DNA of 64,000 bases from Lentimicrobiaceae bacterium (GTDB taxonomy: Bacteria; Bacteroidota; Bacteroidia; Bacteroidales; UBA4417), in NCBI GenBank assembly GCA_028697555.1, contig JAQVEX010000003.1:12450-76449 (forward strand), in the 5' to 3' direction. A program made the position numbers and the translations under genes. How positions within the stretch are numbered: position 1 is the first letter of the stretch; the number at the start of each line of letters is the position of its first letter. Below are positions 49,608-55,732 of this stretch, piece by piece. The notes below the pieces were generated by a model. That model was not told the origin of the DNA and ran no database searches. It saw nothing but the letters and a program-made list of their open reading frames with translations.

Positions 49608-49780
49608 CTTGGCTGTTAGCTGTTAGCTCTTAGCCTTTAGCTGTTGGCAATGAGCAATGAGCAATGAGCAATGAGCAATGAACACCGAAACTTCGGGGTT
49701 AATTATTAATTGATAATTGTTAATTGAAAATTGCCACGCACCTCGAAACCCGCAACCCGCAACCCGTACCAACCACCACC
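49608..49780. repeat. mosaic heptamer-array intergenic element, copy F (type I)
   Basis: Order: GCTGTTA/GCTCTTA units, 5 x GCAATGA (49647-49681), hairpin CCGAAACTTCGG (49685-49696), TTAATTA/TTAATTG/ATAATTG units, CCACGCACC, CCGCAAC x2-3, then ACCAACCACCACC. Fills the whole spacer between the convergent hypothetical gene and udk. Confidence 0.95.
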
Positions 49781-50388
49781 TACTGTAGCTTCATCAAAAT
49801 GCCTGAAACAATCAAATCTATTGCGTTGTCGTTTTCGCCGCCTTGCGGGACGATAATATCTGCCAGACGCTTGCATGGCTCTATAAACTGCAAATGCATA
49901 GGTTTTACCCATTTATAGTAGTGTTCTAAGACTTGCTCTACAGAGCGTCCTCTTTCAACAGTGTCACGTCCGATAATTCTGGCGAGTCTATCGTCGCTTT
50001 CGGCATCAACAAAGACTTTTAGGTCTAACAAATCTACCAATTTTCTATTTGTAAAAACCATTATGCCTTCTATAATAATTATATCGCTGGGCAAAACTGT
50101 TATTGTTTCGGTTAAACGCGAAGAGGTAATATATGAATATGTAGGCATTTCAATTGCCTTTCCGTTGCGCAACTGTTTTACGTGCTCTATCAACAATGAC
50201 CATTCAAAAGAATCGGGGTGGTCGAAATTTACGTTCAGTTTTTCCTGAGCCGTCAGATGCGAACTATCTTTATAGTAAGAATCTAACGATATTGTTGAAA
50301 TAGAATCGGTTGGTAGTTGTTTTACAATTTTTCTAACCACCGTAGTTTTACCACTACCTGAGCCACCGGCAACACCAATAATAAACAT
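49780..50388 (-). CDS. udk: uridine kinase
   Basis: 202 aa. P-loop GVAGGSGSGKTT and the NFDHPDSFE motif. Confidence 0.92.
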   Translation of the reverse strand: MFIIGVAGGSGSGKTTVVRKIVKQLPTDSISTISLDSYYKDSSHLTAQEKLNVNFDHPDSFEWSLLIEHVKQLRNGKAIEMPTYSYITSSRLTETITVLPSDIIIIEGIMVFTNRKLVDLLDLKVFVDAESDDRLARIIGRDTVERGRSVEQVLEHYYKWVKPMHLQFIEPCKRLADIIVPQGGENDNAIDLIVSGILMKLQ

Positions 50389-50428: not shown

Positions 50429-51589
50429 TTATCCTAAAAAGCTCAAAAGTACACCGGCAGCAACTGCACTACCAATAACTCCTGCAACATTAGGTCCCAT
50501 AGCGTGCATTAGCAAGTGATTGCTTTTATCGTACTCCTGACCAATAACTTGCGATATTCTGGCACTATCGGGAACAGCAGAAACTCCAGAGTTACCAATA
50601 AGAGGATTAATTTTATTTCCTTCTTTCAGGAATAAGTTAAAGATTTTAACAAATAATACACCTGCAGAAGTAGCCAAAATGAATGAGATTGCGCCTATTA
50701 TAAAAATACCAAGTGATTTTGGACTTAAAAAAGTTGTAGCTTGAGTTGAAGCTCCAACTGTTAATCCTAATAATATAGTAACAATATCGACAATAGGTCC
50801 TTTTGCGGTATCGGCTAAACGTTTGGTAACCGTGCTTTCTTTTAATAGGTTACCAAAGAACAACATTCCTAACAGAGGTAACCCTGACGGAACTATAAAA
50901 GTAGTAAGCAAAAGCCCCATAATTGGGAACATGATTTTTTCAATTTTAGAAACACTCCTTGGTGGTTTCATACGTATAAGTCTTTCTTTTTTGGTAGTGA
51001 AAGCACGCATGATAGGAGGTTGAAAAACCGGTACAAGTGCCATGTACGAATACGCCGATATTGCAATAGCACCCATTAAGTCGGGAGCTAATTTAGATGA
51101 AAGAAATATAGCTGTAGGTCCGTCGGCTCCGCCTATAATACCTATAGCACCTGCTTCGGCAGGCGAAAAACCTAACATTAAAGCAGCTGTGTAAGCTCCA
51201 AAAATACCAAACTGAGCAGCTGCTCCGATTAGCATTAGTTTTGGGTTAGATATAAGTGCCGAAAAATCTGTCATGGCTCCTATACCCAAAAATATCAGAG
51301 GAGGATAAACCCCTTTAATAACACCAAAATATAAATAATTTAGCACGCTACCCGACTCGTAAATCCCAAGTTGTAAGCCCGGCACAAAAGCAATATTACC
51401 AATCAAAATACCGAAACCTATAGGTACTAGTAGAAGTGGCTCAAACTCTTTTATTATTCCTAAATATAAAAAAAACAGTCCGAAACAAATCATAATGATA
51501 TGCCCCGAAGTCATATTGGCAAAAGCCGTGAAATTTAAAAACTCTCGTAAATTATTTAGGATAAAACTTATAAAACTTACATCTTCCAT
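50429..51589 (-). CDS. sodium ion-translocating decarboxylase, beta subunit (MmdB/OadB family)
   Basis: 386 aa polytopic membrane protein with the conserved GIIGGADGPT and NPLIGNSGVSAVP blocks of OadB/MmdB. Confidence 0.9.
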   Translation of the reverse strand: MEDVSFISFILNNLREFLNFTAFANMTSGHIIMICFGLFFLYLGIIKEFEPLLLVPIGFGILIGNIAFVPGLQLGIYESGSVLNYLYFGVIKGVYPPLIFLGIGAMTDFSALISNPKLMLIGAAAQFGIFGAYTAALMLGFSPAEAGAIGIIGGADGPTAIFLSSKLAPDLMGAIAISAYSYMALVPVFQPPIMRAFTTKKERLIRMKPPRSVSKIEKIMFPIMGLLLTTFIVPSGLPLLGMLFFGNLLKESTVTKRLADTAKGPIVDIVTILLGLTVGASTQATTFLSPKSLGIFIIGAISFILATSAGVLFVKIFNLFLKEGNKINPLIGNSGVSAVPDSARISQVIGQEYDKSNHLLMHAMGPNVAGVIGSAVAAGVLLSFLG

Positions 51590-51594
51590 ATCTA

Positions 51595-52023
51595 CTAGCC
51601 TCCTATTTCAACTAATACATCACCTTCCATAACCGAATCTCCTTTTTTGAAGAAGACCTTTTTAATTGTTCCGTCTGACGGTGAATCTATGTTATTTTCC
51701 ATTTTCATAGCTTCTAACAAAATAAGTCGGTCGCCCTTCTTAACAACGCTACCTTCGCTTACAAAAATATCAAGTATAACGCCTGGCAAGGGAGATTTAA
51801 GTTTGGTTTCGGCAGTCGTTGTAGATGTTTCTGCCACCGGAGTAATCCCACTTGTAGGTTTAGGACTTCTGACAAGTTTTGGGGTTTTGGTTGGTGTTAA
51901 CTGACGGTCAATTTCGACTTTATACTTAGTACCGTTTACTTCTATCTTAGCAATATTGTCTTCAATTTTTAAAATTTCAGCATCGTAAATATTGCCGTTT
52001 ATAGTAAATTTGAATTTTTTCAT
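51595..52023 (-). CDS. biotin carboxyl carrier subunit of the decarboxylase (MmdC-like)
   Basis: 142 aa. P/T-rich linker and a biotinyl domain with EAMKMEN. Confidence 0.88.
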   Translation of the reverse strand: MKKFKFTINGNIYDAEILKIEDNIAKIEVNGTKYKVEIDRQLTPTKTPKLVRSPKPTSGITPVAETSTTTAETKLKSPLPGVILDIFVSEGSVVKKGDRLILLEAMKMENNIDSPSDGTIKKVFFKKGDSVMEGDVLVEIGG

Positions 52024-52057: not shown

Positions 52058-52942
52058 TTATTCTCTCGGATTTTTAGTTAATCCATATATTTTTGAACTC
52101 CAAGGCGAATACGTTCTTGTTACTTTTTTAATTGTTAAAATAGTGTTCTCATTGTCGTGTATAGAACTTGAGTGCAAGTGTAACGCCATTGAAATAGCTG
52201 CCGTAACCTCACCTGATATGTCGGGAACAACAGTAGGTTGTACTTCCGGCTTATTTTTCTTCGATTTAAAAAGTCCTTTTATATCTATTGAGTACAATCT
52301 TTTAGTGTTTTTAAATAGAAGGTACAATAGGATAAGAGATATAAAAACAACGCTCATTGCAACAATAGCCATCCCTACTCCATAAGGATCCATTTTTAAG
52401 AACATTTCATTCTTGGTAATAACTTTTCCCACAAAGTTGCTGGCTTTAGGTGTTGTTTTTTCTAACATACCAAATTCTGCTCCACCGTCAAGTAATCTAC
52501 CATATGTAACATCTGGGATTTGTTCGCCAAAAATAATTTCATCTACTTTGGTTCTACCGTTGACATCGTACAAAGCAATGTAATTGGTTTCGGTGAGCGT
52601 AAAATTAAGGTGCAAAATTCCATGTGTTTCCTTAGCATCGGCATAGAAAACAACGAAATTTCGCGGTGGAATTAAGGTTCTGGGGTCGCCTGGAGGTATC
52701 CAGTACTTAGTAGGATTTGTAGAATCGTTAGTTAGATACATTCCGCCCATATCAACATAGTTATAATCAGCATTAAATATTTCTATCCAACCAACACGCT
52801 CGCCGTAATCATCAATATAATTAGTTTCGTTGTGAACTAATATCTCGTTTATAAATAACTCTTTGACAACCTGCGCATTAGCAACAAAGGCAAAAGTTAA
52901 CAAAATAGTTACAAATACAGATTTTAAAATACTTCTATTCAT
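52058..52942 (-). CDS. lamin-tail-domain / OadG-like (decarboxylase gamma/delta subunit) fusion protein
   Basis: 294 aa. Signal peptide, N-terminal LTD-like region (INEILVHNETNYIDDYGERVGWIEIFN), then an OadG-like TM segment (GVGMAIVAMSVVFISLILLYLLF) and the Bacteroidota-type tail EVTAAISMALHLH...YSPWSSKIYGL. Confidence 0.65.
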   Translation of the reverse strand: MNRSILKSVFVTILLTFAFVANAQVVKELFINEILVHNETNYIDDYGERVGWIEIFNADYNYVDMGGMYLTNDSTNPTKYWIPPGDPRTLIPPRNFVVFYADAKETHGILHLNFTLTETNYIALYDVNGRTKVDEIIFGEQIPDVTYGRLLDGGAEFGMLEKTTPKASNFVGKVITKNEMFLKMDPYGVGMAIVAMSVVFISLILLYLLFKNTKRLYSIDIKGLFKSKKNKPEVQPTVVPDISGEVTAAISMALHLHSSSIHDNENTILTIKKVTRTYSPWSSKIYGLTKNPRE

Positions 52943-54501
52943 TACAACGGTAGATTTGAATGTTTTTTAGGAGGATTTATAACTTTTTTTGTGGCTAATG
53001 CTTGGAAAGCTCTGATAACTCTAAAACGTGTGTTACGTGGCTCTATAACGTCTTCGATATAACCATAGCTGGCAGCGTCGTAAGGATTTGCAAATTTATC
53101 TTTGTATTCCTCTTCGTATTGTGCTGTCATTTTCTCTCTTTCTTCCTCAGTTTCTAATTCCCTAATATTTTTGTTATACAAAATTTCTATAGCGCCTTTA
53201 GGTCCCATAACGGCAATTTCAGCGGTGGGCCACGCGTAGTTGATATCGCCTCTTAAATGTTGCGAACTCATAACACAATATGCGCCTCCGTATGCCTTAC
53301 GCAAAATAACAGTAACCTTAGGAACTGTGGCTTCGCCGTACGCATACAAGAGTTTTGCTCCGTGAATAATAATTCCACCGTATTCTTGTGCTGTTCCGGG
53401 TAAGAATCCAGGCACATCTACCAAGGTAAGCAGTGGTATATTAAAGGCGTCGCAAAAGCGTACAAATCGGGCTGCCTTACGCGAAGCGTTAATATCTAAA
53501 ACACCAGCCAAATAGCTTGGTTGGTTTGCAACAATACCAACGGGCATACCGTTGAAACGTGCATAACCGGTAATAATATTAGGTGCATAATGACGAGCTA
53601 CTTCTAAAAATTCTTGCTCATCAACTATAGCATGAATTACATCTAATACATCGTAAGGCTTGTTAGGATTTTCGGGTATTATATAGTTTAAACTATCGTC
53701 TAATCTGTCTATTGGGTCGGTACATGGAATAATTGGCGGGTCTTCCAAGTTGTTTTGAGGCAAATAGCTAAGTATTTTTCTAATCAGCATTAAGCCTTCT
53801 TCTTCGTCGTCGGCAATAAAGTGGCTTACACCCGACTTACTACCGTGCACCATAGCACCGCCAAGTTCGTTCTCATCAACTACCTCGCCTGTAACGGTTT
53901 TAACAACTTTAGGTCCGGTAACAAACATGTAGCTGTTTGATTTTGACATGATGATGTAGTCGGTAAGAGCCGGACTATAAACCGCTCCACCTGCGCAAGG
54001 TCCAAAAATAGCCGATATTTGGGGAATAACTCCACTTGCCAAAATATTACGCTGGAATATCTCGGCGTAGCCTGCCAAACTCTGTACTCCTTCTTGGATA
54101 CGTGCACCACCCGAATCGTTGATGCCAATAACAGGAGCACCCGAACGCATGGCGTGATCCATTACTTTGCATATTTTTTTGGCGTACATCTCGCTAAGGG
54201 AACCTCCGAAAATGGTAAAGTCTTGAGAAAACACGTAAACCAAACGACCGTCGATAGTGCCGTAGCCTGTAATAACTCCGTCGGTTAGGTATTTTTCGTT
54301 TTCAATACCAAAATCTCTACAGCGGTGGGTTACAAACATATCAAATTCTTCGAAGCTACCTTCGTCTAAGAGAATATTAATACGTTCGCGTGCTGTAAAT
54401 TTTCCTTTGGCGTGTTGTTTTTCGATTCTTTTTTCGCCACCACCAAGCATTGCTTTTTCACGCTTGGCGATTAAATTTTTCATTTTATCTTCAATAGCCA
54501 T
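52942..54501 (-). CDS. methylmalonyl-CoA decarboxylase alpha subunit / acyl-CoA carboxyltransferase
   Basis: 519 aa. Two crotonase-like carboxyltransferase halves ([36 protein letters not shown]). Confidence 0.9.
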
Positions 54502-54506
54502 AACAA

Positions 54507-54917
54507 TTATTTATTCTTATCTTCGCAAAATTCTGTGAGTACTCCGTGGGTAAATTTAGGATGCAAGAATCCTATGCTTAAGCCTTCGGCTCCTTTTCGT
54601 GGGACTTCGTCAATTAGTCTGACGCCTTTTTCTTTGGCTTCCGACAAGGCTCCTTCAATATTATCGACTGCAAAAGCAATGTGATGAACGCCTTCGCCCT
54701 TATTGGCTAAAAATTTACCTACAGGCCCTTCGGGGTCGGTGCTTTCTAAAAGCTCAATTTTCGTTTGTCCGACTTTAAAAAAAGCCGTCTTAACTTTTTG
54801 ATCGGCTACTTCTTCGATGGCGTAGCATTTTAAGCCTAAAACGCCTTCCCAATATGGTAAGCTTTCTTCTATACTTTTTACTGCAATACCAATATGTTCA
54901 ATATGTTTGATGTTCAT
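54507..54917 (-). CDS. methylmalonyl-CoA epimerase (VOC/glyoxalase fold)
   Basis: [18 protein letters not shown]...[11 protein letters not shown]... Start placed at the internal ATG (54917), because the 28-aa upstream extension is hydrophobic junk that overlaps the neighbouring gene. Confidence 0.85.
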
Positions 54918-54997
54918 AATAAAATTTGTTAATTTTGTTTGTGGCAAAGTTATATCTTTTTTGTTTAAATAATAGCAAATTTGAAAAAAGATTATTA

Positions 54998-55732
54998 TCA
55001 AAGCATACGTTTCTCACAATCAACCTGCTTGGGTACTATCTGAATTCTTTCGGTATTTTCAATCCTCCATGAATATGCTGTCATTATTTCGGTTAATATG
55101 GTTTGCATTTGCGATGCAGCATATTCTTTAAGTCCACTCTGATTGACCGCATTTTCTAATTGCTTTTTGCCTTCGTACTGTATTTTGTTTATATCTTCGG
55201 GCTTTATTGGATTAAATATATTGTTTTCGATATTGTAATATTTGTAATCGGTTTCTAATGAAATTATTTCGGGTTCGGGAAAGGATATAATCGTAATCTT
55301 TCTTTGTGGCTCGCTAGCTTTCCAGACAAATTTTTCAAAATCGTAGCCTATCAATACCTTAGCCTTAACTACAACCAAAGCTCTTTTTACATTTGGAATA
55401 ATTTTGAAATACATTTTGTTTTCCTCGTAATTGAATATTTCTTGTAGTTGTCCCTCGGTAGTAACAATTTTAAACACCTTTTTCATGCCCTCAACCACTG
55501 TATTAGTATCAATTTTTACCGTAGCTATTTCTGCAGATTTTTTACCTCTCTTGTAAGCGAAGTAAAACAAAATTCCAACTAAAGCAAGGTTAACTGCAAG
55601 AATTTCAATCAATCTCCATAAACTAATTTTTGTAATACTTGGTAATATTATGGTTGCAAGTATGTTTAGAGCTAACAAAATAAGAACCATTGTTAATAAT
55701 GTTACCCTTGATTTTTCATTTTTTGCTTTCAT
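54998..55732 (-). CDS. DUF4230-like membrane-anchored protein
   Basis: 244 aa. N-terminal TM helices, then a pattern (KIVTTEGQLQEIFNYEE...ALVVVKAKVLIGYDFEK) resembling DUF4230. Assignment from recall. Confidence 0.5.
   Translation of the reverse strand: MKAKNEKSRVTLLTMVLILLALNILATIILPSITKISLWRLIEILAVNLALVGILFYFAYKRGKKSAEIATVKIDTNTVVEGMKKVFKIVTTEGQLQEIFNYEENKMYFKIIPNVKRALVVVKAKVLIGYDFEKFVWKASEPQRKITIISFPEPEIISLETDYKYYNIENNIFNPIKPEDINKIQYEGKKQLENAVNQSGLKEYAASQMQTILTEIMTAYSWRIENTERIQIVPKQVDCEKRML

Follow-up and report, generated by a model that had tools for sequence, protein, structure and literature searches.

In the propionate fermentation of Bacteroides, Phocaeicola, Parabacteroides, Prevotella and related bacteria, which are the chief makers of propionate in the human gut and the rumen, the step that forms propionyl-CoA and conserves energy falls to the methylmalonyl-CoA decarboxylase (Mmd) pump. 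The Mmd systems of Veillonella parvula and Propionigenium modestum, and the system that contains GcdD, keep α, the biotin carboxyl carrier (BCCP) and β as separate subunits and add an OadG-homologous δ; MmdD and GcdD are short proteins that are not known to carry any extracytoplasmic domain. OadG itself, the OAD γ subunit of Salmonella, Vibrio and Klebsiella (PDB 6iva/6iww), is a protein of about 80-85 aa that lacks a signal peptide and has next to nothing in the periplasm. In the Salmonella OAD βγ structure, its TM helix binds β as part of β3γ3 while its C-tail is cytoplasmic and binds α (PMC7274780). According to published reports, the complex does not form without the δ subunit (PMC7274780; PMC11575231), and a 2024 paper describes the Prevotella/Xylanibacter enzyme as seemingly lacking mmdD until an "oadG" was annotated (PMC11575231). 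A PDB search returns the Salmonella OAD βγ as the only solved relative, with no structure of an Mmd complex or of a δ carrying a lamin-tail domain (LTD).

A δ of the latter kind is encoded in the stretch analysed here (the window, 64,000 nucleotides from a Lentimicrobiaceae bacterium), within the following set of features:

54945..54952, minus strand: candidate Bacteroidota-type -7 promoter motif TAACTTTG (TAnnTTTG), read from the sequence
54507..54917, minus strand: methylmalonyl-CoA epimerase, the operon's first gene (TIGR03081, 153 bits against a cut-off of 115)
52942..54501, minus strand: carboxyltransferase α, MmdA-like (PF01039, 680.9 bits; TIGR01117 mmdA, 817 bits)
52058..52942, minus strand: LTD-OadG (Mmd δ-type) gene, 294 aa plus stop, ATG start (ORF list and Pfam)
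51595..52023, minus strand: biotin carboxyl carrier subunit, BCCP, MmdC-like (PF00364, 67.8 bits)
50429..51589, minus strand: Na+-translocating decarboxylase β, OadB/MmdB (PF03977, 488.8 bits; TIGR01109, 484 bits against 190.6)

With α, a separate BCCP, β and δ encoded by adjacent genes, the Mmd subunit set is complete as judged by Pfam and NCBIfam. The order epimerase - MmdA - LTD-OadG gene - BCCP - OadB is kept in 80 of 80 loci from different species, as far as the contigs extend, and the δ gene always lies between mmdA and BCCP, the slot that δ also occupies in the MmdD and GcdD systems. An earlier note on this DNA had read the cluster as an Mmd-type sodium-pump decarboxylase layout with this gene in the OadG/MmdD slot; the neighbours are indeed what they were taken for, and the gene is the sole OadG-like ORF, no second one being found within the window. 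TIGR01117 is the top NCBIfam model for α, its score falling under the model's cut-off of 998.8; BCCP scores 77.7 bits against the MmdC model NF047903, also under cut-off; and β matches Salmonella OadB (PDB 6iva) with E = 2e-111. At 52942 the sequence TAATG makes the δ ATG overlap the carboxyltransferase TAA stop by 1 nt. The candidate -7 motif lies 28 nt upstream of the epimerase ATG and fits TAnnTTTG, which we take to be the Bacteroides -7 promoter consensus; a scan for sigma-70 promoters and terminators and an Rfam scan show nothing relevant. Deletion of the orthologous Bacteroides thetaiotaomicron cluster, BT1686-9, leads to loss of propionate production (PMC8865466).

The δ protein divides into six parts:

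52874..52942, minus strand: signal peptide, aa 1-23, with a predicted SPase I site between ANA and Q24 (hydrophobic peak at aa 5-23)
52433..52873, minus strand: LTD β-sandwich, aa 24-170, predicted periplasmic (Pfam, AF2, Foldseek)
52382..52432, minus strand: short periplasmic linker, aa 171-187 (predicted helix 177-184; conserved F181, D185, G188)
52313..52381, minus strand: single TM helix, aa 188-210 (GVGMAIVAMSVVFISLILLYLLF), OadG-type β-binding anchor (hydropathy peak 2.8; the OAD_gamma match begins here)
52214..52312, minus strand: basic, weakly conserved cytoplasmic linker, aa 211-243 (charge; median identity 0.15)
52079..52213, minus strand: conserved cytoplasmic C-terminal helix and motif, aa 244-288 (conservation; predicted helix 244-277)

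A Pfam scan for the two domains suspected in the earlier note finds both above their gathering cut-offs: OAD_gamma (PF04277) scores 42.6 bits over aa 188-257 (cut-off 27), and LTD (PF00932) narrowly passes, with 35.3 bits over aa 25-136 (cut-off 34.3). The first match upholds the assignment of the C-terminal half to an OadG-family TM anchor and tail. The Ig-like LTD placed behind a signal-like sequence also stands, on the evidence of Pfam, AF2 and Foldseek, except that it extends over aa ~24-170 and not over ~180 residues. Scores against the NCBIfam OadG models all fall under cut-off (TIGR01195 oadG_fam, 18.7 against 36.05 bits; NF003004, 23.4 against 84; NF040909, 18.6 against 25), and the protein is therefore a divergent member of the OadG family and no equivalog of canonical OadG. 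Its most conserved part, the stretch HD.E..LTI..V.R.YSPWSSKIY (aa 261-288), lies past the end of the Pfam OadG model at aa 257. The tail that contains it (aa 244-288; majority fraction 0.78 in the orthologue alignment) is presumed, by analogy with OadG, to bind the α subunit, MmdA. Neither the family profile nor the C-terminal half retrieves anything but noise from the PDB sequences. The protein is like OadG in its OAD_gamma match, its one predicted TM helix (N-out/C-in), its predicted cytoplasmic C-tail, a gene next to β and a presumed place as scaffold between β and α, and unlike it in having YSPWSSKIY outside the Pfam model, sub-threshold NCBIfam scores, no PDB sequence match, and an added signal peptide and 145-aa LTD. 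We consider it very probable that the gene encodes an OadG-family δ subunit with a periplasmic LTD.

Hydropathy gives two hydrophobic segments only, aa 5-23 and aa 188-210. Acidic residues prevail in the LTD (11 K/R against 22 D/E) and basic ones on the C-terminal side, which has 14 K/R against 7 D/E overall and 4 against 1 in the 15 residues that follow the TM helix. Because of the signal peptide, the acidic LTD, the one TM helix and the basic C side, the LTD is predicted to be periplasmic and the conserved C-tail cytoplasmic, as in OadG; the extracytoplasmic N-terminal domain that had been proposed agrees with the hydropathy profile, with the way charges are distributed and with what is known of OadG topology. 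The Sec signal peptide is probably cleaved between ANA and Q24. Residue Q24 occurs in 99% of 79 orthologues versus 3% of LTD repeats from other proteins, and it matches the Bacteroidetes Q-rule for signal-peptide cleavage (PMC5837995); the supplements of the Q-rule paper hold no proteomic confirmation of this cleavage.

The marginal Pfam score of the LTD is backed by the AF2 model and by Foldseek matches. The model, made from 123 sequences, has an overall pLDDT of 78.2 and replaces a 27-sequence run with a pLDDT of 63.5. It reaches pLDDT values of ~87-92 over aa 30-160 and 62-66 for the blocks of aa 161-180, and with a pTM of 0.53 the relative orientation of its domains is unreliable. Foldseek against the PDB gives twelve top matches that are all Ig-folds of lamin A/C, B1 or B2 (probability 0.95-1.00), which belong to the same Pfam family and are the best structural matches, with target-normalised TM values of 0.37-0.64. 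The lamin Ig-folds are only 12-17% identical to the bacterial module, which is longer at its C-terminal end, and they belong to an unrelated cellular context, the nucleoskeleton.

Throughout the order Bacteroidales, δ has the LTD-OadG fusion as its standard form. It is present in at least 593 species-representative genomes, from Bacteroides, Phocaeicola, Parabacteroides, Prevotellaceae, Rikenellaceae, Muribaculaceae and others, so that the lineage-wide survey proposed in the earlier note finds it order-wide and not peculiar to one genome. Two homologue searches return 3,011 and 6,963 clusters with a single ORF of about 290-340 aa (the second, with a Bacteroides query, covers only sequences at least 87% identical to the query and adds annotation names but little diversity), and precomputed Pfam hits place PF00932 in almost all homologues. 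These numbers bear on the idea that the feature is artefactual or has nothing to do with the pump, whether as a frameshift or assembly fusion or as an unrelated membrane protein in the operon. The marginal LTD score and the sub-threshold NCBIfam scores could be read that way, but the same single ORF recurs in thousands of independent assemblies, complete chromosomes included, the gene keeps its place between mmdA and BCCP under purifying selection, and the window offers no alternative δ gene. Wide recurrence, fixed gene order and dN/dS effectively refute this explanation, to which we assign next to no probability.

Selection on the LTD is strong and purifying. Its dN/dS is ~0.07, close to the ~0.05 of the TM helix and C-tail and below the ~0.19 of the linkers, and its median identity is 0.50, against 0.29 for the periplasmic linker and the still lower value of the cytoplasmic linker; a decaying LTD was considered and rejected. 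The full LTD signature kept order-wide, together with this dN/dS, indicates selection on a specific fold and surface. This tells against the proposal that signal peptide and folded domain are a device of biogenesis and topology, which would force Sec insertion N-out and protect the N-terminus (as pyroglutamate) and would have no role after assembly. That proposal draws on the Q-rule signal peptide, conserved here and missing from canonical OadG, and on the statement in PMC10653852 that proteins outside the cytoplasm gain stability from the Q-rule. A small soluble domain of any kind would suffice for such a purpose, however, and the short OadG proteins of other phyla insert unaided. We think it quite improbable that biogenesis is all the LTD is for.

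The closest sequence relatives of the δ LTD are the LTD arrays of giant secreted surface proteins of Bacteroidota type, with tandem repeats 30-40% identical to it over aa 25-170 (~145 aa) and a shared signature. These proteins, of 500-3,900 aa, are secreted or surface-located and carry the LTD in multiple copies, unlike δ, which has a single copy on an inner-membrane pump subunit. A generic LTD signature was defined on 445 repeats from 110 large proteins, 6 of which were scanned with Pfam and show LTD scores of up to 410 bits along with CotH, CBM and T9SS sorting domains. Of 40 LTD positions conserved in at least 85% of δ orthologues, 27 belong to this generic signature and 6 are δ-specific, namely the cleavage-site residue Q24 together with L35, V36, Y80, D86 and F99. 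The conserved residues of the δ LTD are thus mostly the generic signature of bacterial LTD repeats, and the generic polar positions include N32, E33, N38, D44, E54, N57, D102, H111, D134 and N169. With 27 of the 40 positions generic and only 6 δ-specific, the conservation gives scant indication of an interface with β peculiar to δ, and a dedicated β interface built from δ-specific LTD residues is a weakened candidate.

The generic character of the signature is an argument for regarding the LTD as an envelope tether or generic ligand binder. It would then retain the binding activity that LTD repeats have in secreted surface proteins, be it for a polymer of the cell envelope, for lipid head groups or through a contact stabilised by metal, and would use it to anchor or localise the pump relative to a periplasmic or envelope structure instead of contacting β. 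The 27 positions are equally conserved in the 445 repeats, the six scanned repeat proteins have the surface-protein domains just named, and a suggestion that bacterial LTDs direct proteins to membranes or membrane-associated structures is credited to Mans 2004 in PMC6085458. Set against this, the TM helix already anchors the protein in the membrane, and the LTD is unable to reach far from the inner membrane because the linker has only ~17 residues. Moreover, we know of no ligand for any bacterial LTD, and the divergence of the δ LTD, as described below, follows OadB and does not behave independently. An envelope tether strikes us as unlikely.

The same generic polar residues weigh against a sensory or regulatory LTD, one that would respond to a periplasmic condition or ligand (cations, for example) and, by way of the δ helix, modulate the release of Na+ or the elevator movement of β. 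The LTD does have conserved acidic and polar residues, but the polar ones are shared with LTD repeats of proteins that are no pumps, and no precedent for periplasmic regulation is known in the decarboxylase pump family; we give a sensory role very little credence. A DNA-binding role, as in the nuclease and ComEC contexts of the LTD, was also considered and has no support in the operon. The extracellular nuclease ExeM of Shewanella oneidensis is a further case for comparison, being an envelope-associated protein in which a signal peptide is followed by a single accessory, non-catalytic LTD, as in δ. It differs in being a nuclease with entirely different partner domains, and deletion of its LTD only reduces activity in vitro.

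Covariation was measured by mirror-tree and partial Mantel comparison with the neighbouring subunits. LTD divergence correlates with OadB (partial Mantel r = 0.43, p = 0.001, a p-value inflated, as all the Mantel values are, by shared phylogeny) and less with MmdA (r = 0.16); the difference between β and α has a bootstrap interval of -0.02 to 0.49. Of the two controls, TM helix against OadB went in the expected direction and the C-tail did not track α as expected. LTD divergence follows β more than α, then, as a suggestive and weak signal that is not robust, and shared periplasmic exposure of LTD and β could give the same signal without contact.

The reading that we favour is a structural role for the LTD close to β. 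The signal peptide would export a ~145-aa β-sandwich of lamin-tail type to the periplasm, where a linker of ~17 residues would join it to the single OadG-type TM helix, and this helix would pack against β at the edge of the core, as it does in the β3γ3 of the solved OAD pump. The basic linker and the C-terminal helix with YSPWSSKIY would stay in the cytoplasm and dock the carboxyltransferase α, by analogy with the OadG C-tail. Because the linker has only 17 residues, the LTD should lie near the membrane surface. The LTD is a generic bacterial module, of the sort repeated in giant secreted surface proteins, that became fixed on δ. Most likely it would serve for protein interaction or stabilisation in the periplasm, next to β at the membrane surface, where it would help to assemble, stabilise or hold the β3δ3 core and would take no part in catalysis. 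The β-proximal role as such we put forward tentatively, rating its chances as somewhat below even. The whole statement, namely that the protein is the δ of the Na+-translocating, biotin-dependent methylmalonyl-CoA decarboxylase in its Bacteroidales form and that its LTD has the role just proposed, we hold with modest confidence, slightly on the favourable side.

More broadly, the LTD might be a working periplasmic interface and couple the pump to something outside the complex, be it an envelope structure, a neighbouring pump in an array or supercomplex, or a periplasmic ligand. This we judge rather unlikely. If it were true, the periplasm would control how active the main propionate-forming Na+ pump of gut Bacteroidales is, or where it is placed. 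The decarboxylase sodium-pump family would then have its first described periplasmic domain for regulation or tethering, and this LTD would be the first bacterial one with a defined function. To our knowledge, no study has established the function of a bacterial lamin-tail domain, and BT1686-9 of B. thetaiotaomicron is a tractable system in which to ask about it.

Literature searches combining methylmalonyl-CoA decarboxylase with lamin tail, and lamin tail domain with Bacteroides and decarboxylase, found the fusion neither described nor explained. The locus tag BT1687 is unnamed in the literature search, where papers name BT1686, BT1686-9 or BT1688, and guessed Porphyromonas gingivalis tags (PG1610/PG1611, PGN_0498/PGN_0499) returned nothing there. 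The fusion is already annotated by public pipelines and its discussion is absent from the literature searched. The known chemistry of the pathway is unchanged by this finding; the fusion defines an order-wide structural contrast with the textbook pumps of Veillonella, Propionigenium and Klebsiella, and recognising the Bacteroidales δ as an LTD-OadG fusion of 290-340 aa corrects its annotation. This δ has been difficult to identify as such, and in public records the family goes by names as different as "OadG family", "lamin tail domain-containing", "hypothetical" and "phage tail protein"; the protein encoded in this window is 100% identical to one from a Lentimicrobiaceae MAG that bears the name "OadG family transporter subunit".

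The earlier note proposed a single 294-aa reading frame in the Mmd cluster, carrying an LTD-like N-terminal part and an OadG-like C-terminal part. The reading frame itself and the domain matches of its neighbours bear this out, and a Pfam scan finds both domains in the encoded δ protein.

Domain matches of the δ subunit gene and its operon neighbours
52058..52942 (-), LTD-OadG gene: single 294-aa ORF, ATG start
aa 188-257, OAD_gamma (PF04277): Pfam, 42.6 bits against a gathering cut-off of 27
aa 25-136, LTD (PF00932): Pfam, 35.3 bits against a gathering cut-off of 34.3, barely above
Neighbour, methylmalonyl-CoA epimerase: TIGR03081 passed
Neighbour, MmdA-like carboxyltransferase: PF01039; best model TIGR01117, score under its cut-off
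Neighbour, separate biotin carrier
Neighbour, OAD_beta pump subunit: TIGR01109 passed

The ATG shares one base (TAATG) with the TAA that ends the carboxyltransferase gene upstream, as translationally coupled subunits typically do. When all six reading frames of the window are scanned with a profile of the OadG half, no other OadG-like ORF comes up, so this gene is the sole candidate for the anchor subunit. By analogy the δ protein would work as OadG and MmdD do; it shares their Pfam definition but fails the NCBIfam OadG models, and sequence searches match it to none of the solved structures.

Because the LTD score is marginal, the fold was tested. In an AlphaFold2 model from 123 homologues (mean pLDDT 78; about 87-92 over aa 30-160), aa 29-160 are predicted to form a β-sandwich, aa 189-211 a helix and aa 244-277 a long helix at the C-terminus. 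Foldseek against the PDB returns Ig-fold domains of lamin A/C, B1 or B2 as all of its top 12 matches (probability 0.95-1.00; target-normalised TM-scores 0.37-0.64). In an exhaustive HMMER search covering 1.84 billion representatives, aa ~25-170 share 30-40% identity with a module present 3-10 times in proteins of 500-3,900 aa; in six of these repeat proteins, which also bear CotH, carbohydrate-binding and T9SS C-terminal sorting domains, Pfam LTD reaches up to 410 bits. From the model, the Foldseek and HMMER matches and the Pfam results of the relatives, we judge the N-terminal half to be a genuine bacterial LTD, one of the long kind (~145 aa).

Public names are inconsistent within this one protein family (homologues P0001-P0120, P0302-P0344 and P0398), probably because the Pfam LTD score is marginal. 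Pipeline labels already in use are "OadG family transporter subunit" and "lamin tail domain-containing protein"; further names are 'OadG family protein', 'hypothetical protein' and 'Na+-transporting methylmalonyl-CoA/oxaloacetate decarboxylase gamma subunit', and one member is named 'phage tail protein'. No paper linking an LTD with this decarboxylase family was found in the searched literature. A 2024 study of Xylanibacter ruminicola, in which mmdD seemed absent until an 'oadG' annotation appeared, makes no mention of any extra domain (PMC11575231). The LTD-OadG architecture is visible in databases, and is neither described nor explained in the searched literature.

The δ protein is 100% identical to one from a Lentimicrobiaceae MAG, and relatives are encoded in at least 593 genomes (one genome scanned per species). 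Every one of the best 80 of these at least 593 matches covers most of the query; they come from Lentimicrobiaceae, Prolixibacteraceae, Marinilabiliaceae, Salinivirgaceae, Tannerellaceae, Parabacteroides, Bacteroides, Phocaeicola vulgatus, Rikenellaceae, Muribaculaceae and Prevotellaceae, and the divergent representatives that carry names are Bacteroidales too. The order epimerase-mmdA-LTD/OadG-BCCP-oadB is kept in 80/80 loci, as far as the contigs reach. Using a Bacteroides orthologue (304 aa) as query yields 6,963 further clusters, and all the matches listed for it have both Pfam domains, those of cultured B. salyersiae and B. nordii included. Given this breadth and constant gene order, the fusion is the form that δ normally takes in Bacteroidales, and neither an assembly artefact nor a peculiarity of one genome. 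The survey of the lineage that the earlier note had called for thus shows that a known subunit has this variant form throughout the lineage. Loss of the orthologous cluster BT1686-9 abolishes propionate production in B. thetaiotaomicron (PMC8865466), and by synteny BT1687 should be its LTD-OadG protein. These results bear on the annotation of a key propionate-forming pump in gut and rumen Bacteroidales and on the planning of structural studies of that pump, and offer a tractable way to study what bacterial LTDs do.

Some orthologues are 320-331 aa long, and the longest in a set of 78 has 343 aa; a Prevotellaceae protein of 330 aa (L071 2908..3900) has additional sequence past residue ~140 of the window protein, within the C-terminal portion of the LTD. 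For four homologues (P0192, P0245, P0247, P0256) the match to the query falls into two segments. Two Rikenella loci (L072 5879..6457 and L075 5834..6109) have a δ-to-BCCP gap of 270-580 nt, holding long antisense ORFs only, against roughly 10-110 nt in most other loci. P0060 and L066 2017..2850 represent a typical Bacteroidales mmd cluster with LTD-OadG in MAGs labelled Chloroflexota or Agathobaculum (a Firmicute), for which contamination during binning is a likelier explanation than horizontal transfer.

Hydrophobic segments in the δ protein number just two, aa 5-23 and 188-210, the first terminating in ANA|Q. Q24 is found in 99% of 79 orthologues versus 3% of LTD repeats in other proteins, a pattern that fits the Q-rule for substrates of signal peptidase I in Bacteroidetes (PMC5837995). 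Charge differs along the chain: the LTD is acidic (11 K/R, 22 D/E), what follows the TM helix basic (14 K/R, 7 D/E). In the Salmonella OAD βγ structure the γ helix packs against β, and the γ C-tail is cytoplasmic and required for α binding; Mmd and Gcd δ subunits are called γ homologues (PMC7274780). Because of the hydrophobic segments, Q24, the charge distribution and the OAD βγ topology, the LTD is predicted to be periplasmic with or without signal-peptide cleavage, itself a prediction, which agrees with the earlier suggestion of a periplasm-facing domain behind a signal-like sequence.

Median identity to the window protein across 78 orthologues is 0.50 for the LTD, 0.65 for the TM helix, 0.75 for the C-terminal motif, 0.29 for the periplasmic linker and 0.15 for the cytoplasmic linker. 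Values of dN/dS, taken from pairs with unsaturated dS, are ~0.07 for the LTD, ~0.05 for the TM helix plus C-tail and ~0.19 for the linkers, all approximate because dS is near 1. Constraint on the LTD is about equal to that on the parts with known binding roles. The most conserved stretch lies beyond the Pfam OAD_gamma model:

52061..52171 (-), HD.E..LTI..V.R.YSPWSSKIY, aa 258-294

In the V. parvula Mmd, the small ε subunit resembles the δ C-terminus, and it may be related to this motif.

Compared with 445 LTD repeats out of 110 other proteins, the δ LTD has 40 conserved positions (at least 85%), 27 of them generic to the repeat family as its signature, including the polar set N32, E33, N38, D44, E54, N57, D102, H111, D134 and N169. 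Only six are δ-specific (Q24, L35, V36, Y80, D86, F99), Q24 being the predicted cleavage-site residue; thus the δ LTD retains family properties and has no obviously new surface. Here belongs the main rival reading, somewhat unlikely in our view, that the LTD retains a generic LTD binding activity for an envelope component. For bacterial LTDs in general, PMC6085458, citing Mans 2004, gives the suggestion that they target proteins to membranes or to structures associated with membranes.

With epimerase and MmdA controlled, pairwise divergence in the LTD is correlated with that in OadB (partial Mantel r = 0.43, p = 0.001); the correlation with MmdA is lower (r = 0.16). The TM-OadB control is as expected (0.23 vs 0.04), the expected behaviour of the C-tail-MmdA control is not seen, and the bootstrap interval of the β-versus-α difference runs from -0.02 to 0.49; this is a hint, short of proof, that LTD divergence tracks OadB more than MmdA. 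With a linker of only ~17 residues, the LTD would have to lie at the periplasmic membrane surface, beside the rim of the β trimer. Our best reading, a tentative one, is that the LTD would act as a structural or protein-interaction module stabilising or positioning the β3δ3 core.

Across all 64 kb of the window, no Rfam family attains its gathering score. Three further features flank the operon:

54998..55732 (-), DUF4230 membrane protein gene, Pfam 82.7 bits, directly upstream of the operon
54945..54952 (-), TAACTTTG, Bacteroidota-type -7 promoter motif, 28 nt upstream of the epimerase ATG
49780..50388 (-), putative udk (uridine kinase; label from sequence alone), 40 nt downstream of oadB

Only L001, the closest relative, also has the DUF4230 gene in this place. 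We take TAACTTTG, which has TTTG ~23 nt farther upstream, to be a -7 motif from the Bacteroides promoter consensus, and it likely marks the start of the five-gene operon. The putative udk is syntenic only in Lentimicrobiaceae-like loci (L001-L015, L017, L037, L062), and may be co-transcribed with the mmd operon in that family.
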